The notes: generated by a model not told the origin, from the letters alone. Shown: positions 35,101 through 47,257, counted from the first letter of the stretch. The stretch is DNA of 64,000 nucleotides from an uncultured bacterium (GCA_965371445.1 CBDUYN010000022.1:19482-83481); one strand, 5' to 3'. Numbers and translations are program-made.

Positions 35101-35312
35101 CGGAGTATCATGACAAGGTCTTCGGCCTCTTCGAGCGGCTCGACACGCAAACCGAAGGCACGGGCATCGGCCTCGCCATCGTCAAACGGATCGTCGAGTT
35201 CCACGGCGGCCGCATTTGGGTCGAGTCCGAGGGGCTGAGACGTGGCAGCACCTTTTGTTTTACACTTCCCTGCAAATGCGCACCTACGTCGCGTCCACCT
35301 CTGGAGACTTGA
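32175..35312 (+). CDS. Sensor histidine kinase with periplasmic two-component-regulator propeller (Reg_prop) and Y_Y_Y domains, a TM helix, HisKA and HATPase_c
   Basis: Repeated DG.LW.GT..GL..F/L propeller motifs. Y_Y_Y-like TFRYRLVEHDPDWVEVGARRTAYYTKVPPGTYRFEV. TM helix ILWFQISAALAAVGLIVLGFTV. H-box FTYTVSHDLKAPL and ATPase motifs DNGVGI, GTGIGLAIV. Start may be 32217 (MISSRP...). The 3' end overlaps the next gene by 47 nt. Confidence 0.85.
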   Translation: MFDRGVASAGSRKEMISSRPKRKPWHRSAGAGLLAALLWTAPGRAIDPEKSLDQLVHKSWTTADGLPQNAVLDIVQTCDGYLWLATFGGLARFDGQKFTVFDVAASPGLRSNRITALHEDADGVLWLGSERGFVCRREDERFDCLGVADGLPRGVVWSLLEDLDGALWIATSNGLARLAEGRIRTFSESDGLRGATEALVLDRQDNLWVGTAGGLARWRGDRFELRQIPSLFGHATPHAAVADPRGDLWVTMHHGVLKLHDGEMQVIVEPPPSGMSFGDILHDRDGNLWFTNHGVGRFRAGSLVDDGERLLQDGRLEVRVLYEDGEGNIWIGTSSHGLHLLRDGIFSSHLHPMGSAGGGILESASGEVVFGTFCQGVHLLAGKDMSRIDRPESGLGCVNSLLEDRRGRLWAGGGVLGLREGNSWTRFTATDGAFVRSPVRALFEDRRGVVWVGADQGLASFADGRFTPYTSSDGLKIDDVRLITEDSRGNLWLAGPYGLMRFAGAEIAPRSARHFTVSDGLPHNFVRAVYEDASGGLWIGTYGGGMAYLDPDGDVFTTLTRAHGLPENAVSSIVEDDAGNFWMSGNRGITRLRRAEAEAFVRGETDRVHAVLYDEVDGMIPSETSGGFQPAAWKARDGRIWYPTIRGVAVVDPAKLRLGAPPPVAVERVRVGRREVEARSTVIVPPGDWDLEIEYTGLQLGLPAETRFRYRLVEHDPDWVEVGARRTAYYTKVPPGTYRFEVTAAAYAGGPWNEGPATFDIVFRPFLYQILWFQISAALAAVGLIVLGFTVHIRGLRRHARELASTIAELEAKNAEMERFTYTVSHDLKAPLVTIQGFSGMLRKDARAGNPKRVDDDIERIQAAGAQMGRLLDDLLELSRIGRLMSTPQEVPLSEVAREARELVTGRLGSVEVEIAGDLPTVLGDRPRLVEVFQNLFENAARFMGDEVEPRIVVGHRRDAEETVVYVRDNGVGIAPEYHDKVFGLFERLDTQTEGTGIGLAIVKRIVEFHGGRIWVESEGLRRGSTFCFTLPCKCAPTSRPPLET

Positions 35313-38300
35313 CGGCCCACCGGGCCGCGGCCGCCGAGGTGATGGCCGAGATGGGCCTCGAAGCGGTGACGGCGGAGCCTCCGGGCGACCACGCCGGGCG
35401 CGGCGCGGTGGCGGCCTGCGCCCGCCTCGTGGCCCACGCCGACCTGGTGCTGGCGATCGTCGGCTGGCAGCAGGGGGAGGTGCCGGGACCCGAGCTCGGC
35501 GGCGATGGACGGCGCTCGTGGACCGAATGGGAGGTCCGCAGCGCTTTGCGCCAGGCCAAGCCTGTGGTGGTGCTCAGGGCCGACGACGGCTGGCCGCCGG
35601 AGCTGCGGGAAAGCGATTCGGCTGCCAGTGCCCGGGTGGCGGATTTCCGCGGCGAGCTCGAGCGGCTGGCGGTGCCGTTTGCCGCCGAGCCCGAGCCGCT
35701 GCCCGAGTTCCGGCTCCGGGTCCGCCGCGAGCTGGACCCCTTTCGGCGCGGCGGGTGGTTGGGCGACCGGACGCCGGAGATCGACGATGCCGTCCGTCCG
35801 CGGCAATGGCCGGCCCCGGCGCTGCCGGAGCGGCCCTATCCGCTGCTGCTGCCCTATGCCCACCCGGATCTCCTTGGCGGGCGCCAACGCGAGCTCGAGG
35901 AGCTGCTTCGCCGCCTCGACGAGCCGGTGCCGATCCTGGGACTCTACGCGCCGTCGGGGGCGGGCAAGAGCTCGCTCCTGGGCGGCGGATTGATCCCCTG
36001 GCTGCGCGCCGCCGGCCGGCCGGCGGCGTTCGAGCGCCATCCCGACGAGCCGGGCCTCGCGGATCGCCTGCTCGGCGATCTCCTGACTCCGGTGATCCGC
36101 GCCGAGGACGATTTCCGCGCCTTCGTCGATCGCCTGCTCGCGGCGGCCCGCCTCGGCGGCCGGCCGCCGGTCCTCGTCTTGGACCAGTTCGAGGATTTGC
36201 TGCGGGCCGGCAAAGCCCCACGACGGGCGGTGGTGGGGAGGCTGCTGGCCGCCTCGACGCAGCGCCTGCCGGGCTACGCCGGACCCGTCTGCCGCTGGCT
36301 GCTGGCCTACCGGCAGGAGCTCCACGGTGAAGTCTGCGGCTGGCTGGCCAACGTCTTGGGCGATTCGTCCGGCAGCGGTGGTTGGGTGCGCCTGCGGCGC
36401 AACGAGGAGGCCCCTGAGCTGCCGCACGATCTTTCGGGTCCTGAACGCTTCCACGCCTGGGCTCTGCCGCCGCTCGGAACGCCTGCGCCGGGGTCAAAAG
36501 ACCGAGCCGGCGAGGCGGCGCGGGCGTTTCGCGAGGCGATCGAGACACCGCTCGCCCTGCGGGACGAGAGCCACCGGCCCCGCTATCCGTGGCGCTTCGC
36601 CGACGGCGCGGCCGCGCGTCTCGCCCGGGCCTTCGGTGAGGCGCGTCTGGCGCGGCCGGGAGCGCCGCTGGCGCCGGAGCTACAGGTCGTGCTGGCTTAT
36701 CTGCTGGAACGGTCCGGGGAGCCTCCCGTCGTCGAGGTACCGGAAGATCCCGCCGAGCTGATCGACCAGGCGCTGGAAGAGCACCTGCGGCGGGCGCTCG
36801 GGCTGGCTTTCCCCTCGGGCCGGGCCGCTGCCGGCCGGGCCTCGCTCGGACGGACCCGGGCGCTCTTGGCGTTGCGCGAGCTGACCGACGCCCACGGCCG
36901 GCGCCGCAAGGGCCTGAGCGTCGACGTGCTGGCGCCGGCGATCGGCGAAGAAGGCCGCGAGGTCCTGGAGAAGCTGGCAACGCCGCAGACCCGTCTCGTC
37001 GTCCTGGAGGAGCAGCCCGAGGGCTGGTGCTACGTGCTGTCTCACGACCGCATGGCTGAAGTGTTGGTGCGCCTGGTCGACGGCGAGGAGTATGCCGGCC
37101 TCGGGGTCGACGCCGAGCTGTTGGGCCTGCGGCGCTTCGTGGCGCTGCGCACCGAGCTCTTCAAGGCCGGCGAGGTGGAGCAGGCGACCGAGGCGGGAAG
37201 ACACGGGCGCCGCATCGAGGCGCATGCCGACGCGTTGCTCTGGGGAGACGAGCACCGGCGCTGGTGGGCGGCGTACCAGGAGCGGCGGCGGACCGATCGC
37301 CAGCGGAACGTGACGCGATGGGGGATCGCGGCCGCCGTCGTGACCCTGGTGATCCTGGGGGCGTGGAGCTGGGCGGACCGGCTCACCAGCCGACGGGCGC
37401 TTCTCGCGCAGATCTCCTCCGGCGAGCCGGAAGCAGCGTTCGCGACGCTGGCTCAGCTGACGGCCGAGGGCGCCGGGAGCGAGGAGCTGCTGGCTCAGCT
37501 CAGACAACGGGAGAAGCCTTTCGAGGTGCTCGGGCGCGGCCTGGGCGGCGTCGACGAAGAGCAGCGGGGAGCCGCGGTGCTGCGGGTCGCGGAGCTCGTC
37601 TTGCCGCTCTTCGAAGAGGCGCCGCGGGATCCGGTCAGGATCGCCAGCACGGTCTGGGCGCTCGATCGGTTCGCCGCGCCAAATCGGACCCTCTGGGAGC
37701 AGGCCCTGGCCCTGCGCGACACGGTGCTGGAGCCGCTGCGCCGGAGCCGTCCACCGCCGCCGGCACCCCGGAGCGCGGAGGATCCGGATTGGGTCGACGT
37801 TCCGGCCGGGACCTTCCGGATGGGACCCTGGCCCACCGACGGACCGGCGCACCAGGTGACGCTCTCGGCGTTTCGGATCCTGACCCACGAGGTGACCCGT
37901 GGCGAGCTCCGCCGCCTGATGCCGGATCACCCGGGGGAAGCCGACCTGCCGGTGGAGTCCGTCACCTGGTACGAGGCCTACACCTACGCCGCCTGGTTGG
38001 GAGGCCGGCTCCCCAGCGAGGCGGAGTGGGAGTACGCGGCCCGGGCCGGCTGCGCCTTCCTGTACTGCAAACGCGACGGCAGTGAGGCGACAATCGACGA
38101 AGTCGCGTGGTGGAGCGGCAACTCGACCGATCTGGAAACGGGCGAGGTTTCGGTGCGGCCGGTGATGCGGCTCGAGCCCAACCCGTGGGGGCTCTTCGAT
38201 GTCTACGGCAACGTCTGGGAGATGACCGCCGATTGGCGGGGGGTCTACCCCGAGGAGGCCGTGGTGGATCCTCCGGGTCGGACCGACAACGCGATCAACC

Positions 38301-38434
38301 TTCGCGTCGGGCGTGGAGGCGGAGCCTCGGATCCGGCGGAATGGATCGTGCCTCAGGCCCGAGGTGCCGGTCCCGGGGAAGTTCGGATTCCCTATGACGG
38401 CTTTCGTGTCGTGCTGGCGGCCCGCAAGGAATAA
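35266..38434 (+). CDS. Multidomain signalling NTPase: N-terminal DUF4062/TIR-like domain, P-loop (STAND-like) NTPase, single TM helix, then a C-terminal FGE-sulfatase (SUMF1/formylglycine-generating-enzyme-like) domain predicted to be extracytoplasmic
   Basis: N-terminus MRTYVASTSGDLTAHRAAAAEVMAEMGLEAV...DLVLAIVGWQ...SWTEWEVRSALRQAKPVVVL is DUF4062-like. Walker A ILGLYAPSGAGKSSLLGGGLIPWL and Walker B PVLVLDQFEDLL. TM GIAAAVVTLVILGAWSWA. FGE domain WVDVPAGTFRMGP...VTWYEAYTYAAWLGGRLPSEAEWEYAARAG...RLEPNPWGLFDVYGNVWEMTADW...RVGRGGGASDPAEW...GFRVVLAARKE. Confidence 0.8.
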
Positions 38435-38444
38435 CTCGGCCCGC

Positions 38445-41400
38445 TCAAGGCCCGGGACGGCCCGCCAGCACGACCCGAAGGCCCTTGCTCTGGTCCACCC
38501 TGCCCGGATCGTGTCCGATCCGTCCCACGACGCGCGCCGCGGCGGCCCCGTGCGCGAAGTCGCCGCCGCGACTCACGCGCCGGACGACGCCGGGGGCGGC
38601 CGGACCCCATGGGTCGCACCGCGCGGCAGGCGGGTCGTCGCCATACCAGTCCGTCGTCCATTCGTTGAGGTTGCCCAACATGTCGAAGAGTCCCCACGGA
38701 TTGGGCTCGAGCCGCATCACCGGCTGCGGCCAAGGCGCTTGGGTCTCGGGATCCCTGGAGTTGCGCCGGGTCCAGGCCACCTCGTCGACCGTCGCCTCGC
38801 TGCCGTCGCGCTTGCAGTACGCGTAGGCGCAGCCGGCCCGCGCGGCATACTCCCACTCCGCCTCGGTGGGGAGCCGGCCTCCCAGCCAGGCGGCGTAGGT
38901 GTACGCCTCGTACCAGGAGACGTGGGTCCTGGGCCGGTCGTCCCGGCCCGGACCCTGGACCTCCGGCAGCAGACGGCGGGCCTCGGCGACGGTCACCTCG
39001 TGGGTCATGATCCGGAACGCCGAGAGCGGCACCTCGCGCACCGGCCCGCCGTCGGACCAGGGGCCTATCCGAAACGTACCGGCCGGAACGTCGACCCAGC
39101 CCGCGTCCCCGGCGCCCGGCGGAGCCGGCGGCGGGCGCCGGCGGCGTAAGGGCGCCAGGACGTGGTCACGCAAAGTCCGGGCGCGCTGGGCGTGCGGCGG
39201 ATCGCGTCCGGGGGCGAAGTCGAGGGCCCAGACCAGGTTGGCCAGGAGCACCATGTCCTCCGGCGTCTCCTCCACCCACGGCAGGGCGACCTCCACCGCC
39301 CGCAGCACCACGGCGCCGCGCCTCTCCTTGCCGAAGCCGCCGAGCCCGCGCTCCAAGACGTCCATCGGCGCCCCGCGTCGGCGCAGGAGCGCCAGCAGCT
39401 CCTCGTCGCCGGTGTCAGGCCGCCTCGCCAGTCGGTCGAAGGCCTGAAGCGCCAGCTCGGGCTCGCCCCGGACGATCTGCTCCCGGAGGGCCAGGTCCTC
39501 CCTGCGCTGCCGCGCCCAGCTCCACGTCCCCCAGGCCACCAACGCCAGAAGGGCGACGGCGGCCACCGTGAAGCCGGCCGAGCGTCGCCGGTCGGCCCGG
39601 CGGCGCTTCCGGCACGCGGTCCACCAGGCGCAGCGCTCCGCGTCGCCCAGGAGCGCTTCGGCATGGACCGCGACGCGCCGGTAATGCCGCCGCGGCAGCC
39701 GTGTCGCCTCCTCCTCCCGCGAGCGGTGGAGCGCCGTCTTGAGCGCCACGAAGCGTCGCAGAGCCAGCAGCTCGGTGTCGATCGTGAGCTTGCCGTGCCG
39801 CCCCTCTTTTTCCACCATGCGGACCACTGCTTCGGCCAGGCGGTCGTGCGAGAGCACGTAACGGAAGCCGTCGGCCTGCTCCCGGACCACCACCAGGCGG
39901 GTGAGCGGGCTCGACAGCCTTTCCAGGATCTCCTCACCGTCCTCGCCGATCGCCCGCGCCAGGTCCTCGACCCGGACGCCTGCGTTGCGCTGGCCCGACG
40001 CGGTGGCCAGCTCGCGCAGGGCCAGGAGCGCCCGCGCGCGGTCGGTCGGCGCCTCTTTTGTCCGTGCCACCGTCCCCTTGGGGGGACCGGTTCGCCGGCT
40101 GCCGAGGGGGGATGACATACCCGTGGCGCTTCGCCGCGGACGGGTCTTTGCGACGGTGGTGGGAAAGACCGTCTCGAGAGCGCGCCGCAGGTGCTCCGCC
40201 AGGGCTTCGTCGATCAGCCGGCCGGGATCTTCGGGCACCGCGACCTCGCGGGGCGACGGCCCATCCGCGTCCGTGCGCGCCAGGAGATGTGCCAACACCA
40301 CCTGCAGCTCCGGGGTCAGCGGCGCGTCGGGCCGGGCGACCCGGGCTTCGGCGAACGCCCTGGCCAGCCGCGCGGCGCCGTCCGCGGCGAAGCGCCACGG
40401 GTATGTTGACGATTCCAGCGCCAGGGGCTTTTCGATGGCGTCGCGAAAGATCCGCTCCGCCTCGGCGACCGGATCGGCCCTGGGCGGCGGCGTTCCCAGC
40501 GGCGAGAGCTTCAGGAACTGGAAGCGGTCCGGCCCCGCCAGGTCGTAGGGCAGCCCCGCGGGAACGGCGAGCCGCGCGCTGCCGGCGTCGGCGAGCACGT
40601 CGCCGAGCCAGGCCACGACGTCGCCGTGGAATTCCTGGCGGTAGGCCAGAACCCAGCGACAGAGCGGTCCCTCGGAGCCCGGCCGGCGCGCCACCGAAGC
40701 CGCCAGCAGGATTCCCAACCGCGCCCGCGCCGGCTCCGCCGCCGCGTCCCGCAACAGCTCCTCGAGCTGGTCGACGACGAGGACCGGCGCCCGGCCGCTG
40801 GCGAGGCGGGCGACCTCGTGCAGGTGATCGACGAAGGCCTGAGGCGTCTCGCCGTCAGCCATGGCTGAGCGCGCCTCCGGCGCGACCGTCGTCGCGTCGT
40901 CCATTTCCAGCAGATCGGCGACGAGGCGTCGCGCCAGGTCCCCCTCCCGCGGATGGCGCGCCAGGGCCACCGGTACCCCGGCGTCGCGCAGGGCGGGAGC
41001 CAGACCGGCGATCAGCAGCGAGCTCTTGCCGGTGCCCGAGGCCGCGTAGAGGCCGAGGATCGGCTGCGGCGTGCGCAACCGGCGGCGCAGCTCGTCGAGC
41101 TCGTGGTCGCGGCCGGCGAGAAGCGCCGGGTGGGTGTAGGGCAGGAGCACCGGATAGGGCCGTTCCGGCAGCTCCGGGGACGGCCAACGACGCAGCCGGA
41201 CCGCTCCCGGCCGGACCGCTCGCGGGGCTGCGAGGGTGTCCGGCCCCTCGCCGGCGGCAGGCCCGGCCGGATCTTCTCTCCGCCCCGCTTCCTCCCCGGC
41301 ACCGGCCAGGGCCGCTGCCACCTCCCGGGCCGAGGCGGGGCGGTCATGGGGGTCCTTTTCCAGGCACTGGAGGATTAGGCGTTCGGTGACTCCGGCGAGC

Positions 41401-42296
41401 CCTTCGACCAGCTCTCCGGGCGGCCGTGGCGCCACCTCCCGATGGAGCCGCGCGAGCTCGCTCGGCGACCGGGCCTCGAATGCCGGCCGCCCGGTCACCA
41501 GCTCGTAGAGCACCAGCCCGAACGCGTAGAGGTCACTCTTGACCGAAGCCTCGCCGGCCTGGTGCTCCGGCGCCATGTACGCCGGGGTGCCGCCGAGGGC
41601 GTCGGCTCCGGCCACCGCGGCGAGCCCGAAGTCGGCGAGGCGCACCCGCCCCGTGTCGTCGATCATCACGTTGGCCGGCTTCAGGTCATGATGCAGGATG
41701 CCCTCGGCGTGGACCGCGGCCAGGCCCTCGGCCAGCTGCCGGCCGATCGTCACCACCCGGTCTTCGGGCAGTCGGCCGAGGCGCCGCAAGAGCCCGGCCA
41801 GGTCCTCGCCGGCGACGTGCTCCATCGACAGGAAGTGCCGTCCGCCGGCCTTGCCGACATCGTAGACCCGGCAGACGTTGGGATGGCCAATGGCCCTGGC
41901 GATGCGCACCTCGTCGAGCAGTAGCGCCAGTCTCGCGGGGTTGTCCCGGGCCGCTTCCGGCAGGAATTTCAGCGCCACCGTCTGGCCCAGCTTGAGGTCT
42001 TCGGCGCGGTAGACCTCGCCCATGCCGCCGCGGCCGAGGAGGCCCGCGACGCGGTAACGCCCGGCCAGGATCGTTCCGGCAGCCAGGCCGCCGGCCGGGC
42101 TTTCGAGAGTCCTGGCCAGACCCTCGTGGCCGGTGGAGGTGTCGTCCTGGTCGTAGGCGAGCAGCGAGAGGACCTCACGGCGCAGCTCGTCGTCGTCGCC
42201 ACAGGCCCGGTCGACGAACCCGCGGCGCTCAGGCACCGGCCGCTCGCGGGCCGCCAGGAAGAGCTCCTTGATCAGCGGGTTACGCTCCTCGCTCAT
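38445..42296 (-). CDS. Multidomain signalling protein: N-terminal Hanks-type Ser/Thr protein kinase, the same P-loop NTPase, single TM helix, C-terminal FGE-sulfatase (SUMF1-like) domain; paralog of 35266-38434
   Basis: Kinase motifs GRGGMGEVYRA, VALKFL, HHDLKPANVMID, DFGLA, APE. NTPase PYPVLLPYTHPALLAGRDHELDELRRRL...ILGLYAASGTGKSSLLIAGLAPAL and VLVVDQLEELL. TM FTVAAVALLALVAWGTWSWA. FGE domain WVDVPAGTFRIGPWSDG...VSWYEAYTYAAWLGGRLPTEAEWEYAARAGCAYAYCKRDG...RLEPNPWGLFDMLGNLNEWTTDW...GLRVVLAGRPGP. The ATG overlaps the sigma-factor stop (ATGA). Confidence 0.85.
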   Translation of the reverse strand: MSEERNPLIKELFLAARERPVPERRGFVDRACGDDDELRREVLSLLAYDQDDTSTGHEGLARTLESPAGGLAAGTILAGRYRVAGLLGRGGMGEVYRAEDLKLGQTVALKFLPEAARDNPARLALLLDEVRIARAIGHPNVCRVYDVGKAGGRHFLSMEHVAGEDLAGLLRRLGRLPEDRVVTIGRQLAEGLAAVHAEGILHHDLKPANVMIDDTGRVRLADFGLAAVAGADALGGTPAYMAPEHQAGEASVKSDLYAFGLVLYELVTGRPAFEARSPSELARLHREVAPRPPGELVEGLAGVTERLILQCLEKDPHDRPASAREVAAALAGAGEEAGRREDPAGPAAGEGPDTLAAPRAVRPGAVRLRRWPSPELPERPYPVLLPYTHPALLAGRDHELDELRRRLRTPQPILGLYAASGTGKSSLLIAGLAPALRDAGVPVALARHPREGDLARRLVADLLEMDDATTVAPEARSAMADGETPQAFVDHLHEVARLASGRAPVLVVDQLEELLRDAAAEPARARLGILLAASVARRPGSEGPLCRWVLAYRQEFHGDVVAWLGDVLADAGSARLAVPAGLPYDLAGPDRFQFLKLSPLGTPPPRADPVAEAERIFRDAIEKPLALESSTYPWRFAADGAARLARAFAEARVARPDAPLTPELQVVLAHLLARTDADGPSPREVAVPEDPGRLIDEALAEHLRRALETVFPTTVAKTRPRRSATGMSSPLGSRRTGPPKGTVARTKEAPTDRARALLALRELATASGQRNAGVRVEDLARAIGEDGEEILERLSSPLTRLVVVREQADGFRYVLSHDRLAEAVVRMVEKEGRHGKLTIDTELLALRRFVALKTALHRSREEEATRLPRRHYRRVAVHAEALLGDAERCAWWTACRKRRRADRRRSAGFTVAAVALLALVAWGTWSWARQRREDLALREQIVRGEPELALQAFDRLARRPDTGDEELLALLRRRGAPMDVLERGLGGFGKERRGAVVLRAVEVALPWVEETPEDMVLLANLVWALDFAPGRDPPHAQRARTLRDHVLAPLRRRRPPPAPPGAGDAGWVDVPAGTFRIGPWSDGGPVREVPLSAFRIMTHEVTVAEARRLLPEVQGPGRDDRPRTHVSWYEAYTYAAWLGGRLPTEAEWEYAARAGCAYAYCKRDGSEATVDEVAWTRRNSRDPETQAPWPQPVMRLEPNPWGLFDMLGNLNEWTTDWYGDDPPAARCDPWGPAAPGVVRRVSRGGDFAHGAAAARVVGRIGHDPGRVDQSKGLRVVLAGRPGP

Positions 42297-42900
42297 GGCG
42301 CGTCGACCTGGGCGGCGTGGTGGGCCAGCTCGCGCTTCAACCAGGCCCGGGCGTAAGCCCAGTCACCCTGCACGGTGCGCCGTGAGACCTGGAGGAGGTC
42401 GGCGATCTCGATAGACTTGAGACCCGCGAAGAAGCGCAGCTCGACGATCCGCGCCTGGCGCTCGTCGATGGTGGCGAGCCGGGTGAGCGCGCGGTCGAGC
42501 GCCAGGAGATCCTCGGGGTCCCAGCCGTCCGCCGTGGCCGGGGCCAGCTCATCGGCAAAAGTGACGCGCTGCCAGCCGGCGCCGCGTTTGGCCCGCAGCC
42601 TGCCGCGGGCGTGATCGATCAGCACCCGGCGCATCATCTGGGCGCCAACGGCCAGGAAGTGGGAACGGCCGCGCCAGTCGACCTGGGTCTGGTCGACCAG
42701 CTTGAGATAGGCCTCGTGCACCAGGGCGGTCGGCTGGAGCGTGTGCCCGGGGCTCTCGCGCTGCATGAAGCGCGCCGCCAACCGCCGCAGCTCGTCGTAG
42801 ACCAGCGGCATCAGCTCCTCCGCGCCGGCCGCGGCACCGGCGTCGTCTCCGCTCAGGGCGGTGACGATCGCCGTCGCTTTGGACTTCGCAGGGCTCGCCA
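42293..42900 (-). CDS. ECF-type RNA polymerase sigma factor of the kinase-associated TIGR02999-like family
   Basis: Start MASPAKSKATAIVTALSGDDAGAAAGAEELMPLVYDELRRLAARFMQRESPGHTLQPTALVHEAYLKLV...SHFLAVGAQMMRRVLIDHARGRLRAKRG...IVELRFFAGLKSIEIADLLQVSRRTVQGDWAYARAWL matches the signature of the TIGR02999 sigma70 region 2/4 family. The stop overlaps the kinase ATG by 4 nt. Confidence 0.8.
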
Positions 42901-43060
42901 TCAATACCTTCCTCGACGGTACCGAGTATATCCGTCCGCCGGCGCCTGGGAGGTCGCCATCTCCGCCCTTGCACATTTTTCCGCGGACATCGCGGAGGTG
43001 GTTGAGGGCGGAAATGAAAGCCGCCCCAGCCCACGAGAACCAACGGTACGGAGGTCAACC

Positions 43061-44758
43061 ATGAGATTTCACCGCATGCTCACCGTCATCCTCGTCGCGA
43101 TCCTGCTCGCCGCCGCGCCGGCGACCCGGGCCGCCGGCGAGCCGCTTCGCGTCATCCTCTCCGATCTGCAGGGCTACCGCCCATCCCTCGAGGTCGAGAG
43201 GGGAGATTGGATCTTCTTCGACCTGGAGCCGGTCACCCTGAGGCCGTTCTACCGAGGTCCGATCCGGATCGACAACTTCACCGTGATGGGCGACTTCGAG
43301 GAGATCGAATGGCAGACCGCACCCGGCGCCCCCGTCCACACGTTCCCGCGCGCCGCCCGGCGCGTGGTGGACGACGAGGCCTTCTCCGTCTTTCATCTGA
43401 GCTTTCCGGCCACCGAGCTGCGCCGCCTCGATCCGTTGCCGATTCGGTTCGATCAAAACCACGGCAGCGCTGCCTGGCCCTTTCGCATACGGTCGGCTGG
43501 CATCCCTAACACCGAGGTCGTCCGCATCAACGACCGGGTCCAGTACTCGAGCCACGTGGTCAACATCGTGGCTCCGGACGTCGTGAACGACGGCACCCTG
43601 CCGCGCGGCGACCGGATCTTCAACGTGCTCGATCTGCTCGAAACCTTCTACACGCACTTCACCGACAGCTACGAGGAGGTGAGCTTCGTCCCGACCCGGT
43701 CCCATCGGCGCCCCACGGGTTTCGCCTACCGCATCGCGGGTGGGGTGCCCCAGAGGCTCGTGGGCGGCAATGTCCACGTCCGGGGCGACATGATCTGGAA
43801 CGTCCACACGCTCCACGAGACCGGACACCAGTGGGGCTTCCGCTTCGACCTTTTCGCGGTGGCGGGAGTCGAGCCGCAGGTGTCCACGCAGTGCATCGAC
43901 GGAGGCCACACGCCGCTGATCGCCGACCTGCCGAGCTTCTTGACGGACTCGTGCAGGCTGAACAAGACCCGTCACGGTCCTCTCTGCATCCAGCGAGACG
44001 AGAAGGGATGGGTCCTCGGTCACTGTGAGCTGCCGCTCTCCTATCACCCGCTTCAGCTCTACGCCATGGGCCTTCTGGCGAAGGACGAGGTACCGCCGCT
44101 CTATCTGCGGCTGCGGCAGGACCCGATCCGCCCCATCGAGCCCGGCACCCGGGTCGAGGGACCGTTCGTCAAGTTGACGATCGACGACGTCGTGGCCCAC
44201 TACGGGGAGCGTCAGGGCTCGCCGATGCCGGCGATCTGGCGGCGGGCCCTGGTCGTGATCTCGCCGGAGCGCCTCTTGAGCCCCGGGCAACTGGCCTGGT
44301 TCAACTTCTTCGCCAAGCGGACGTCCGACCCGAACGTGACGGGCATCGAGGGCCTCGACCGTAGCCCTTCCATGGAATTCGCAACCCGAGGAATGGTCGA
44401 CCTGCGCACCGACATCCGTCCCATTGAGGAACCGAAGGTCATCGGGCGATTCCCGGTCGCGTACCCGAAGGTGGGTCCGCGGGACATCGCGGGGCTGGTG
44501 CTCGACGAGGATCTCACCACCCGTTACAAAGTGCGCCGCTTCTACGTTGTCTCGGGGAAGGTGCCAGGGCGTGGGAATCACCAGACCGTGCGCATCGAGG
44601 TCGCCTCGAAGGTCTTCCTGGGCAAGATCGGGGCGGATCGGCGTTTCTCGGTCCGATTCAGGCTGGATCCCAAGGATCGCGGGCCCCGGTGGATGACTTT
44701 TGGGCTGGGTGAGTCCGGCCCGGTGCTCGGCCGGATCGCTCCGGTCTACGTGGAGTGA
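43061..44758 (+). CDS. Secreted zincin-like metalloprotease candidate (HExxH: LHETGHQWGF), paralog A
   Basis: RBS GGAGG then ATG at 43061. Signal peptide MRFHRMLTVILVAILLAAAPATRAAG. Single HExxH motif (HETGH). 565 aa, Cys-containing mature region. Confidence 0.65.
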   Translation: MRFHRMLTVILVAILLAAAPATRAAGEPLRVILSDLQGYRPSLEVERGDWIFFDLEPVTLRPFYRGPIRIDNFTVMGDFEEIEWQTAPGAPVHTFPRAARRVVDDEAFSVFHLSFPATELRRLDPLPIRFDQNHGSAAWPFRIRSAGIPNTEVVRINDRVQYSSHVVNIVAPDVVNDGTLPRGDRIFNVLDLLETFYTHFTDSYEEVSFVPTRSHRRPTGFAYRIAGGVPQRLVGGNVHVRGDMIWNVHTLHETGHQWGFRFDLFAVAGVEPQVSTQCIDGGHTPLIADLPSFLTDSCRLNKTRHGPLCIQRDEKGWVLGHCELPLSYHPLQLYAMGLLAKDEVPPLYLRLRQDPIRPIEPGTRVEGPFVKLTIDDVVAHYGERQGSPMPAIWRRALVVISPERLLSPGQLAWFNFFAKRTSDPNVTGIEGLDRSPSMEFATRGMVDLRTDIRPIEEPKVIGRFPVAYPKVGPRDIAGLVLDEDLTTRYKVRRFYVVSGKVPGRGNHQTVRIEVASKVFLGKIGADRRFSVRFRLDPKDRGPRWMTFGLGESGPVLGRIAPVYVE

Positions 44759-44796
44759 CGAACCTGGCGACCCCGGAAGAAAAACGAGACAGAACC

Positions 44797-46578
44797 ATGA
44801 ACTTCCAACACGGAGACAGAACCATGAAAATTCACCGCATGCTCACCGTCATCCTCTTCCCGATCCTGCTCGCCGCTCCGCTGGCGGCCCAAGCCGCCGC
44901 GGGCGCCGGCGCCGAGACCTCCTGGTGCGGCGCCCACCCGGCTCGCCTGGCCGGTACCCTGGCCCGCCACCAGCGCCACCAGCGCCAGCTGGAACGTCAC
45001 CCCGTCCTGGCGGAGACATCGGGCCGCGCCCGGACCGCTTCCGTAAACGTCTACCACGTCGATCAGCTCGCGATCATTGAGGACGACGGGACCTTGATCG
45101 CTCCGGCCGCGCCCTTCGACCTGTCGGGGAAGTCCATCCAGTTCCTGCGCCGGCCGCGCGGGATGAGCGTCGTGCGCTCCGCGGTGGGGTACAAAGACCA
45201 GATCGGAGAAAGGCTCCTGCTGCCCTTTGGCTCGTCCTACGTCCCCTTCACCGACGGCTTCGAGCTCCCCTTCTTCGACCAGGTCTACTCCGGCGTCCGG
45301 GTCAGCGAGGCCGGCTATCTCCGCTTCGACGAGCGGACCCTCTTCAGCCACCCTGACAACGAGCTCGACCTCCTCACCGGACCTCCGAGCATCGCGGTCT
45401 TCTTTGCGGATCTCGATCCCTCGGCCGCGACAAACGGCAACGGCGTCTACGTGCAGCACCTGCCCAGGCGGGTGCGGATCACCTGGCTCGGGGTTCCCGA
45501 AGCAGGCAGCGGAAACCTGGTCACTGCGCAAGTCACCCTCTTCGACAACGGCCGCATCCTCTTCGCCTACGGCGACGTCGCCGCCTCCCGCGGGATCGTC
45601 GGCGTCTTTCCCGGCGGCGGCGTCCAGATCGACGCCTACCCTCTCGACATCAGCGAGGAGCTGCCGCAGCCGCCGCGTCAGGCCGCCTATTTCGAGACCT
45701 TCAGCGACGCGGAGAAGGTCGACGAGCTCGCCTTGACCGAGGCCTTCTACGAGCGCTTCCAGGACCGCTACGATCACCTGGTCGTGTGGGCCGATTTCCC
45801 CCTGGCGTCGCCCGGGGGCGACGGCTCGTTCCAGGTCACGTTGAAAAACGACGTCGAGGGCATCGGCATGCCGCGCTTCGACCTGTCGCGGTCTCTGGGC
45901 CTCAACCGGCTCGAAAGCTACGTTCAAATGGGCGACCTGGGGCAGTATCCCGCCAACCCCAACGAGATCGTTTTCGACACCTACTCGACGATGGACGTCC
46001 TGGCCCACCAGGTGGGGCACCGCTGGCTGGGCCTGGTCAGGCATCGCAGTTACTACAATGGGAACCAGGGCGGTGAGGTCATCCATCTGCTCGATCCTGT
46101 CGGCGCCGAGCACTGGAGCTTTCACTTCGACACCGGCGCCTCGGTTCTCGGCGGCAACGACATCCGGGACAATGGCGACGGCACCTTCACGACCGTCGGC
46201 GCGACCTCACAGTACTGCGATCTCGACCTCTACCTGATGGGCCTGATCCCGGCCGCGGCGGTGCCGAGCTTCTTCTATGTCGGCAGCGTCGCCAGCCCGC
46301 CGTCCTGGCACCCTCCGGAAACCGGCGTCACGATGACGGGAGACCGCGTCGAGGTGGCGATCGACGACGTCACCGACGCCATCGGAACGCGGGTGCCGGC
46401 GAGCGCCGATGCGCCCAAGGTCTTTTCCACGGCCTTTGTGCTGTTGGTCCGGGAAGGCGAGCCACCCTCCGTAGAGTCGCTCGAGAAGTTGGGCTACTTC
46501 CGGCGCTATTGGCATCGCTACTTCAAGGAGGCTACCCACTTCCACGGCCGGGTCAATACCTCCCTTCGCGTGAAGTAG
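44797..46578 (+). CDS. Secreted paralog B of the zincin-like protein, with a degenerate HQxxH (VLAHQVGHRWLG) motif; possible inactive homolog
   Basis: Signal peptide M(NFQHGDRTM)KIHRMLTVILFPILLAAPLAAQAAAG is homologous to paralog A. There are two in-frame ATGs (44797 and 44824), created by a 16-nt duplication GAGACAGAACCATGAA. The zinc-site Glu is replaced by Gln. Confidence 0.6.
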   Translation: MNFQHGDRTMKIHRMLTVILFPILLAAPLAAQAAAGAGAETSWCGAHPARLAGTLARHQRHQRQLERHPVLAETSGRARTASVNVYHVDQLAIIEDDGTLIAPAAPFDLSGKSIQFLRRPRGMSVVRSAVGYKDQIGERLLLPFGSSYVPFTDGFELPFFDQVYSGVRVSEAGYLRFDERTLFSHPDNELDLLTGPPSIAVFFADLDPSAATNGNGVYVQHLPRRVRITWLGVPEAGSGNLVTAQVTLFDNGRILFAYGDVAASRGIVGVFPGGGVQIDAYPLDISEELPQPPRQAAYFETFSDAEKVDELALTEAFYERFQDRYDHLVVWADFPLASPGGDGSFQVTLKNDVEGIGMPRFDLSRSLGLNRLESYVQMGDLGQYPANPNEIVFDTYSTMDVLAHQVGHRWLGLVRHRSYYNGNQGGEVIHLLDPVGAEHWSFHFDTGASVLGGNDIRDNGDGTFTTVGATSQYCDLDLYLMGLIPAAAVPSFFYVGSVASPPSWHPPETGVTMTGDRVEVAIDDVTDAIGTRVPASADAPKVFSTAFVLLVREGEPPSVESLEKLGYFRRYWHRYFKEATHFHGRVNTSLRVK

Positions 46579-46747
46579 CCTTCGGAAGCCCGGAGCGCAT
46601 CTGCACTGGAAAGGGGAGACCAGACGGCGCGGAGGCGCTCCGGGCCTCATCAGGTGCCGAGCCGTTTGCTCCACACGGCCGTGCAGAGGGTTGAGGGATG
46701 GACCAGAGCGACTTGACGTGAGCGTCCAAGGACCGGAGAATCCGCCT

Positions 46748-47257
46748 ATGCGAAGAACACGAACCGCACTCGCCGTCCTGGGGCTCGCCGCAGGACTGAC
46801 CGTGCCGGCCGCTCCGGCCCCCGCCCAGGAAGAGGCGGCCGAGGCGAAGCCGACGCTCGGGATCGAAGCGGTGACGATCGAGCCCGCGGCGCCTTCGGTC
46901 GACACCCTCTGCCGGCTTCGGGTGAAGGTCAAGAACACGGGTCCCGCGACCGTCTCGGCGCTCTACTTCCGCGTCGCCATCAACGGGCAGGACCTCGAGG
47001 TCTACAAGAACCAGATCTTCATGGACCGCCTCGACGCGGGAGCCGAGACCGAGGTCGTCCTCTACAACTTCTGGACGACGGAGAGCCGCCGTCCCCCGCC
47101 CGCCGACGGCAAGCTCAAGCTCACCGTCGAGCTGCGCGAGGCCCAGCTCCTCGCGGTCACCACCGAGGACGACGGCACCGAGGTCTGGACCCTCGGCGAG
47201 GCCGTCGGCGGCCTGCCGGTGTCGAAGGAGCTGGTCGTTAAGCTCAAGAAGGGCTGA
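46748..47257 (+). CDS. Secreted CARDB/Ig-like-fold hypothetical protein
   Basis: Signal peptide MRRTRTALAVLGLAAGLTVPAAPAPAQ. Beta-rich segment (LCRLRVKVKNTGPATVSALYFRVAINGQDLEVYKNQIFMDRLDAGAETEVVLYNFW) resembling a CARDB domain. Confidence 0.5.
   Translation: MRRTRTALAVLGLAAGLTVPAAPAPAQEEAAEAKPTLGIEAVTIEPAAPSVDTLCRLRVKVKNTGPATVSALYFRVAINGQDLEVYKNQIFMDRLDAGAETEVVLYNFWTTESRRPPPADGKLKLTVELREAQLLAVTTEDDGTEVWTLGEAVGGLPVSKELVVKLKKG

Follow-up and report, generated by a model that had tools for sequence, protein, structure and literature searches.

The window analysed here is a stretch of 64,000 nucleotides (nt) from an uncultured bacterium (GCA_965371445.1, CBDUYN010000022.1:19482-83481), given as one strand with positions counted from its first letter; the features discussed lie mostly between 43061 and 46578. 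It was assigned to Acidobacteriota, as its SucD is 81-83% identical to proteins of Acidobacteriota/Thermoanaerobaculia metagenome-assembled genomes, and the source lineage within this phylum is probably Thermoanaerobaculia-like. Here we focus on two adjacent genes, taken from the listing and translation of open reading frames (ORFs). Gene A (43061-44758, + strand) encodes a protein of 565 amino acids (a.a.) starting with MRFHRMLTVIL, and gene B (44824-46578, + strand) encodes a protein of 584 a.a. starting with MKIHRMLTVIL. Both proteins begin with a classical signal peptide of the n-h-c type (n-region, h-region and AxA), read from the sequence: that of A (43061-43135, +) would be cleaved after MRFHRMLTVILVAILLAAAPATRAA and before G, and that of B (44824-44898, +) after MKIHRMLTVILFPILLAAPLAAQAA and before A. 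In the AlphaFold2 (AF2) model of A, the signal peptide forms an N-terminal helix predicted with low to moderate confidence (block-mean predicted local distance difference test (pLDDT) score of 53-68). The two signal peptides support the initial annotation of this DNA in describing both proteins as secreted, and we infer that both are Sec-exported.

Following the signal peptide, A (P0001 in our protein set) has an N-terminal beta-sandwich, a domain with an HExxH motif and a C-terminal beta-sandwich; B has a cysteine (Cys35) and a helix, a NIDO-like beta-rich domain (45046-45708, +; residues ~75-295) and a domain with an HQxxH motif. The AF2 models have a pLDDT of 78 for A and 89.7 for B (predicted template-modelling score, pTM, 0.88). 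An exact sequence look-up for A gave no record. BLASTP aligned A and B over ~100 a.a. only (E-value 6e-5, 29% identity). Comparison by hhalign of alignment A1 (family A, 20 sequences, 30-59% identical to A) with alignment A2 (the B family, 97 sequences; 120 homologs of B were found) gave a probability of 99.7% (E-value 1e-25) over ~260 columns, corresponding to residues 187-459 of A and 299-584 of B. One domain of ~280 a.a. is common to both proteins, at ~21% identity: residues ~185-460 of A (43613-44440, +; hmmsearch with the domain profile, E-value 3e-60) and residues 296-584 of B (45709-46575, +; E-value 4e-111). No third copy of the domain was found in the window.

The initial annotation had called A and B tandem paralogs and proposed to align them. 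They are adjacent and have a domain in common, but their flanking modules differ and they are no duplicated pair: an A-type gene next to a B-type gene was found in none of the 12 other loci that we retrieved (L001-L013; the plasmid locus L014 was left out). We rejected recent tandem duplication because of the low identity, the different architectures and this lack of conserved adjacency. A and B are members of two deeply diverged subfamilies. The closest homologs of A and of B are found in one assembly, on separate contigs.

The likeness of the two signal peptides, pointed out earlier, is real and stronger than claimed. A 57-nt patch at the 5' end of A (43057-43113, +; 4 nt of leader plus codons 1-18) has a partner copy at the 5' end of B (44820-44876, +; the ribosome-binding/leader region and the first codons), and the two copies are identical at 53 out of 57 nt (93%; blastn E-value 8e-19); outside this patch blastn found no nucleotide similarity between the genes. 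The B orthologs P0022 and P0023 begin with MNAF... and MNVS..., and only the c-region of the signal peptide is common with B, their n- and h-regions being different. Relatives of A (P0002 and P0009) have M-x-R/F-H/L-R-like N-termini. The Shine-Dalgarno (SD)/start region is directly repeated upstream of B (44783-44827, +; ACGAGACAGAACCATGAAC ... ACGGAGACAGAACCATGAAA), and the first in-frame ATG of this repeat would give MN..., as in the starts of P0022 and P0023. An A-like 5' end was probably placed on B by a short local gene conversion or recombination.

SD-like GGAG(G) lies 7-9 nt upstream of both genes, which are on the same strand and separated by 65 nt. A GC-rich hairpin follows the stop codon of B (46587-46647, +; RNA fold -47.1 kcal/mol, z -3.07); it is without a U-tract and was not called by the consensus terminator scan. 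It is likely that this hairpin marks the end of an A-B transcription unit and, given the short gap and the hairpin, A and B are probably co-transcribed.

The shared domain and its family

Conservation figures and the motif census are based on the 286 domain instances of an alignment of the shared-domain superfamily. Its signature consists of a helix FYxxFxDxY(D/E), NxxxGIG, (H/Q)ExGHxW, ~30 residues, H(W/x), LDxY(L/A)MG and GxRxP. In the numbering of B, conservation is 89% for F308, 95% for D314, 86% for N342, 99% for G346, 94% for G348, 96.5% for the motif Glu (column 396; 276 instances), 99% for the second motif His (H399), 86% for W401, 98% for H430 (His in 280 instances), 92% for W431, 92% for D468, 100% for Y470, 95% for M472, 100% for G473, 99% for G521 and 99% for R523. 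Position 468 is Gln in family A, where an invariant His sits three residues earlier.

A and B carry the motif as LHETGHQW and LAHQVGHRW, respectively, as the initial annotation had reported, and these motifs are no chance occurrences. The HETGH of A (43814-43828, +; H252, E253 and H256) is on a predicted helix (residues 247-256, AF2), and its H, E and H are invariant in all 20 members of family A; lack of conservation among homologs had been named initially as an observation that would refute the reading of the two proteins. The HQVGH of B (46006-46020, +; H395, Q396 and H399; codons CAC CAG GTG GGG CAC) is likewise on a predicted helix (389-398), with no Glu present. The position of the B motif aligns with (H/Q)ExxH in 275 out of 286 instances: HExxH in 187 (65%) and QExxH in 88 (31%). 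HQxxH and HAxxH are found in three instances each, RExxR, RAxxQ, SLxxL and EExxH in one each, and one instance is a motif fragment. The candidate third metal ligand is the highly conserved His ~30 residues after the motif, H430 of B (46111-46113, +), with which H283 of A aligns (43907-43909, +; invariant in family A), accompanied by a conserved Asp and Tyr. The latter two belong in B to the block D468-L-Y470-L-M472-G473 (46225-46242, +); A has the block HPLQLYAMG (44045-44071, +), of which H329, P330, Y334, M336 and G337 are invariant in family A.

That the family is not obvious from sequence, as noted initially, holds: searches of the two proteins against Pfam and NCBIfam returned no relevant model. 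In a hmmscan search (E-value <=1) against Pfam of 43 proteins (A, B and 41 diverse relatives), accessory domains only were matched (NIDO, TIG, Big_1 and CARDB-type). None of the 43 matched Peptidase_M60, M64 or M66 (dictomallein, StcE), the families suggested at the outset, and neither the sequence-profile searches nor Foldseek brought up a PDB entry for any of them. The NIDO family (PF06119) matches 16 out of 43 relatives (best E-value 1.4e-7); B itself has no match at E-value <=1. Profile A2 matches the N-terminus of RemA (8gl6_D, residues 51-175, E-value 2.8e-5). For the model of A, Foldseek matches in the PDB are restricted to Ig-like sandwiches; for the model of B there is nothing in the PDB at E-value <0.1, with no zincin match, and in BFVD uncharacterised phage proteins only. 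A literature search for HEXXH, NIDO and bacterial found no paper.

The family is very large. An exhaustive HMMER search with alignment A4 (the shared domain only) found 5,789 clusters (at 50% identity) with E-value <=1e-3, and 2,081 with E-value <=1e-30. Source annotations of the members are 'hypothetical protein' or names of accessory domains only. The architectures include NIDO-type proteins of ~580 a.a. that resemble B, variants carrying TIG, Big_1 or Solibacter C-terminal domains, short proteins of the MYXO-CTERM type and giant proteins of 5-6.7 thousand a.a. that carry the shared domain at the N-terminus. In some members an alpha/alpha-toroid (prenyltransferase/TED-like) domain and about five CARDB repeats are fused to the shared domain, and fusions of CARDB to the HExxH domain are found in P0201, P0231, P0236, P0260 and P0176. 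A member from a cultured organism is WP_013572926.1 of Granulicella tundricola, annotated as hypothetical and coupled to an upstream gene whose product has a DPP IV N-terminal domain, a neighbor of the proteolysis type. No match was found in phages, and the only one in plasmids is a 'hypothetical protein' on a Granulicella megaplasmid. A scan of the genome collection for family A gave one truncated locus and nothing else.

In zincins and metzincins the N-terminal subdomain has strands and a backing helix followed by the motif helix. The same order is predicted by AF2 in B, with a strand (288-294), a helix (301-309), strands (318-323, 336-339, 365-371 and 382-384) and then the motif helix. From the conserved signature and from this order, which would correspond to that of the zincin N-terminal subdomain, the shared domain is most likely a zincin-like metallohydrolase. 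Zincins (MEROPS clan MA-type, e.g. the secreted M6 InhA) are similar to the proteins described here in the predicted position of the HExxH helix, after a beta-sheet and a backing helix, in the conserved distal His as a possible third ligand, in the Sec export and in the Ig-like/adhesin accessory domains. The shared domain differs from them, however, in having no Pfam peptidase model (M6, M60, M64, M66 or others) and no PDB/Foldseek match, in the frequent Gln at the first His, and in the ~30-residue spacing to the distal His and the LDxYxMG block, which do not fit gluzincin, aspzincin or metzincin signatures. With M6 InhA (HExxHxxGxxD) there is some likeness in two distant members, P0130 and P0131, in which an InhA-like MAM domain follows the HExxH domain (sub-threshold, 19.5 vs a cutoff of 26.9 bits), but Peptidase_M6 has no match; family A reads HETGHQWGFRFD, with Gly at +3 after the second His and Asp one residue out of register, and family B has no such Gly. 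The extended motif of metzincins (HExxHxxGxxH/D) is not seen: its position 11 is taken by Phe in A and varies among B-type proteins. The conserved Met of LDxYxMG may be a counterpart of the Met-turn. The N-terminal beta domain of B-type proteins is similar, at the family level, to NIDO proteins such as the Flavobacterium gliding adhesin RemA (8gl6), but the similarity does not reach the PF06119 model in B itself, and A has a different N-terminal sandwich.

Variants of the motif in B and a deletion in A

HQxxH is found only in B, P0022 and P0023, which are mutual nearest neighbors (65-66% identity in the domain); their next relatives (~50% identity) have Glu. Since these nearest outgroup relatives have Glu, the E-to-Q change in B is derived, which agrees with the initial annotation in that Glu was replaced by Gln. 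The codon of Q396 (CAG) is one base away from GAG; the Gln is kept in three sequences across substantial divergence and is not a sequencing error. The clade keeps both motif His, H430, D468, Y470, M472, G473, GIG and Cys35, and B thus has the look of a natural E-to-Q variant that has been maintained. As in pseudo-proteases, Glu is kept in the homologs, Gln is conserved among the orthologs and the rest of the domain is constrained. B probably binds metal and is probably catalytically impaired.

When the zincin motif Glu is naturally substituted, E-to-Q is one of the most over-represented changes, and the HQxxH ADAMs are inactive (PMC3650047). An engineered HQxxH matrix metalloproteinase (MMP) is described, in a passage of PMC7717551, as losing function with its structure unchanged. 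The HQxxH ADAMs, substituted CLCA and other substituted zincins (Lenart et al. 2013, PMC3650047) are similar to our case in the natural change of Glu to Gln, in both His being kept, in conservation within a clade and in several independent origins within an otherwise HExxH family; our case differs in being bacterial, in belonging to a secreted, unnamed family and in the tiny size of the substituted clade (three out of 286).

Cys35 of B (44926-44928, +), within a WCG, is conserved in at least 90% of A2 and is a candidate cysteine-switch residue; its region has a block-mean pLDDT of 54 (residues 31-40), right after a segment below 50 (13-35). In the NIDO-type subfamily this N-terminal Cys is found in 85 out of 89 (H/Q)ExxH members (the four without it are truncated or gapped sequences), in all three HQxxH members and in none of the five HAxxH, RExxR or SLxxL members (uncorrected Fisher p 2e-6, three independent lineages). 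Such coupling would be the pattern expected of a cysteine-switch latency ligand, and it also suggests that the HQ site continues to be used, if only to bind metal. The MMP/ADAM cysteine switch has a comparable Cys-Gly near the precursor N-terminus (PRCG, vs WCG here); however, there is no sequence homology to MMP pro-domains, and family A is without such a Cys.

One genome (3.19 Mb contig) has four B-type paralogs (P0034, P0094, P0103 and P0112), of which one has QExxH and the other three HAxxH. At 72-76% mutual identity, the HAxxH copies have all lost the N-terminal Cys; here, copies with a dead motif have expanded independently.

Close relatives can differ in having QExxH or HExxH, the two forms being interleaved, and in 85% of the QExxH cases the residue before the Gln is Gly. 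The dimorphism may be one of metal specificity. When QExxH members were searched for a compensating ligand by mutual information, no convincing candidate came up. A natural QExxH metalloproteinase of Volvox is active and prefers Cu(II), according to a passage in PMC7717551 that cites Heitzer & Hallmann 2002. This VMP3-type protein is, like the QExxH members, an extracellular metalloenzyme with a natural QExxH; but the Volvox VMPs are MMP-like metzincins (QExxHxxGxxH), whereas the domain described here has no metzincin extension, its Q and H forms are interleaved, and A and B are both H-type.

A lacks the NxxxGIG element, which B keeps as NDVEGIG (45847-45867, +). The junction of the deletion is at 43709-43738 (+), where ~18 a.a. 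are lost in frame. This ~18-residue gap is unique to A in alignment A1, in which the other members carry D-V-E-G-I-G. Among the 286 instances the element is missing only from A and two fragments, A being the sole full-length case, and its glycines are conserved to the same degree as the metal ligands. The pLDDT is below 50 around the junction (residues 219-228). The missing segment is not encoded in any other reading frame, and on this ground we rejected a frameshift artefact as the cause of the gap. Outside the deletion, A agrees with the family-A consensus. The initial annotation had taken A as the active enzyme beside an inactive B: the HExxH motif of A is indeed intact, but the activity of A is doubtful because the near-universal NxxxGIG is missing despite that motif. 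A, like B, may be impaired.

Genomic context of the two genes

The usual neighbors of A-type genes are different from those of A. In the P0002 and P0012 branches of family A, a gene for a FadL/Toluene_X-like outer-membrane protein follows after 9-70 nt (L001, 4836-6164; L009, 9965-11314; L010, 5080-6429), and the FadL-like proteins of these two branches are 46-48% identical to each other. The window has no FadL/Toluene_X-like gene; B occupies that slot after A.

Divergent from A is a gene for an extracytoplasmic function (ECF) sigma factor (42293-42976, -; PF07638, E-value 8.5e-55), followed downstream by a Pkinase-nSTAND1-FGE-sulfatase gene (38445-42296, -) that overlaps its stop codon. A and B were initially suggested to be the regulon of this sigma factor. 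A PF07638 sigma factor (52% identical) with a kinase is found ~4 kb upstream of, and divergent from, the gene for P0024, a B relative with the RExxR variant, in L013 (1-2211, -); such linkage was not found in the other 11 of the 12 loci, a frequency compatible with chance in Acidobacteriota. By eye there is no convincing -35/-10 pair in 42977-43060 or 44759-44823, a sigma-70 consensus scan gave nothing upstream of A, and the promoter/terminator scan was uninformative for both genes. The regulon idea gains little from these data, because the linkage recurs only in L013 and no convincing ECF promoter is seen.

Other features of this region were observed as well. In the window (42917-42934) and in L013, the SD of the leading gene in the sigma operon is closely preceded by GGTAC(C)GAGTATA(T/A)CC, which may be a conserved -10 or leader element. 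We read the ECF sigma gene and the overlapping kinase gene as an ECF-kinase module with a STAND sensor. The kinase gene (38445-42296, -) and its convergent neighbor (35216-38434, +) encode giant paralogs, 54% identical over 930 a.a., which share the nSTAND1 NTPase and a C-terminal FGE-sulfatase and have different N-termini (Ser/Thr kinase vs DUF4062). Downstream of B there is a gene for a small secreted CARDB-domain protein (46749-47257, +; PF07705, E-value 3e-5; start and signal peptide also read from sequence). This gene beside B and the CARDB fusions elsewhere make a Rosetta-stone link possible, with a neighborhood that is not conserved in the other loci. Further downstream, a Lys-rich ORF of 445 a.a. 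without Pfam match (51687-53024, -) has a local GC content of 0.57 vs ~0.67 elsewhere and may be foreign or mobile.

Interpretation

The sequence observations of the initial annotation hold, its interpretation only in part. Our preferred interpretation, which we hold with moderate confidence, is that A and B, both secreted, represent two subfamilies of a large zincin-like family that is so far unnamed, B being a maintained, metal-binding and probably non-catalytic protein and A an atypical one without a near-universal loop, the two having been juxtaposed and their 5' ends homogenised. The shared domain would be a zincin-like extracellular metallohydrolase, most likely a peptidase, with the metal held by the two motif His and the distal His (H430 in B, H283 in A) and with the motif Glu as the general base; a cysteine-switch-like latency ligand would be present in the N-terminal Cys of the NIDO-type subfamily. 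B would still bind metal and ligand, with most of the hydrolytic activity lost, as a pseudo-enzyme or binding protein comparable to the HQxxH ADAMs, and the activity of A would be uncertain too after the loss of NxxxGIG. Rather than a conserved functional pair, A and B would be members of different subfamilies brought together in this lineage, where a short gene conversion or recombination would have homogenised the ribosome-binding region and the first 18 codons.

Several observations weigh against this interpretation. No Pfam peptidase model covers the HExxH domain in any of the 43 members even at E-value <=1, and PDB searches with profiles A1, A2 and A4 found no relative of it, only the NIDO-like region of RemA. 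QExxH in 31% of the instances, without compensation, is unusual for zincins, and the site could be no classical zinc site. The co-variation of Cys and motif comes from three independent lineages only. An E-to-Q change does not abolish activity in every case.

In one alternative, B is still active, possibly in a reduced or changed way, because another conserved residue such as D468 or Y470, or a different metal, activates the water, or because the chemistry is independent of the motif Glu. The HQ clade retains the other signature residues and the Cys over ~35% divergence, while lineages in which Glu became Ala or the His residues were lost have also lost the Cys, which suggests that the HQ site is in use; Gln is tolerated at the first His in nearly a third of the members, so the site is chemically flexible, and the Cu-preferring QExxH enzyme mentioned in PMC7717551 is a precedent. 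The motif Glu, however, is highly conserved, and in characterised zincins its change to Gln lowers activity by orders of magnitude. The loss-of-function HQxxH mutant of an MMP, as given in a passage of PMC7717551, and the inactivity of the natural HQxxH ADAMs (PMC3650047) are also against it, and we consider residual activity of B rather unlikely.

We see a similarly small chance that the domain is no peptidase at all but a metal site for the hydrolysis or binding of lipids, glycans or hydrophobic polymers, or a structural/adhesive surface module. In favor of this are the missing match to any peptidase family or PDB fold, an H/Q dimorphism that is not typical of zincins, and the place of the domain at the N-terminus of the giants and beside CARDB, TIG, Big_1, NIDO and alpha/alpha-toroid TED-like modules. 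The FadL family is known for taking up hydrophobic compounds, and A-type genes repeatedly precede a gene for a FadL/Toluene_X-like channel. But the near-invariant Glu-x-x-His, together with the distal His and the Tyr, makes up the classic signature of a hydrolytic metallo-site, the co-variation of the Cys resembles zymogen latency of proteases, a DPP IV-domain protein adjoins the Granulicella member, and peptidases are very common among secreted HExxH proteins that carry Ig-like or adhesin modules.

Two readings of the arrangement itself are left. In the one suggested by the initial annotation, A is an active secreted zincin and B its dedicated inactive partner (a decoy, inhibitor- or receptor-like), in a tandem pair under the divergent ECF sigma factor. 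The intact HExxH of A beside the HQxxH of B, the adjacency on one strand with near-identical 5' ends that could equalise translation or export, and the related sigma factor and kinase near the P0024 gene agree with it. Gene context gives the toxin/inhibitor or receptor/decoy idea no support, however, as the adjacency does not recur in the 12 other loci and the closest homologs are on separate contigs; moreover, the proteins are distant and differ in architecture, A is without NxxxGIG, and the usual neighbor of A-type genes is the FadL-like gene instead of a B-type gene. Sigma/kinase pairs are common in Acidobacteriota, and the single recurrence may be due to chance. We regard such a pair as very unlikely. 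Equally improbable is that A and/or B are eroding copies joined by a local rearrangement without biological meaning, as the unique deletion in A, the mosaic 5' end of B with its duplicated start region and the lack of conserved synteny might suggest, since neither ORF is truncated or interrupted and both have good SD sequences, the Gln of B is kept in three sequences at 65% identity with the other conserved residues intact, and the deletion in A is in frame, with the remainder matching the family consensus.

A more speculative extension, which we think improbable as a whole, sees here an unnamed and structurally unmatched family of extracellular metalloenzymes (>5,700 clusters) in which the H/Q dimorphism of the first ligand would be a possible Zn/Cu switch, the Cys a latency residue lost when the site decays, and non-catalytic binders a recurrent outcome; A and B, with complementary defects and homogenised signals, would possibly form a co-secreted hetero-complex, neither being a stand-alone enzyme.

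What is new here, under our preferred interpretation, is an unclassified HExxH family with a pseudo-enzyme clade, a variant of the known HExxH type. The tandem arrangement of A and B looks like a lineage-specific accident, of little weight alone; the main value lies in how large and obscure the family is, in its H/Q dimorphism and in the co-variation of the Cys. If the interpretation is true, the locus draws attention to an HExxH family that is among the larger ones still without a name, with members mostly in Acidobacteriota and other environmental bacteria, some of them heading giant surface proteins. The HQxxH clade would add a bacterial case of a maintained pseudo-protease. Acidobacteria are major degraders in soil and sediment, and their exo-enzymes are poorly known; a name for the family, its fold, its metal and an explanation of QExxH vs HExxH would give better annotations to thousands of 'hypothetical proteins'.

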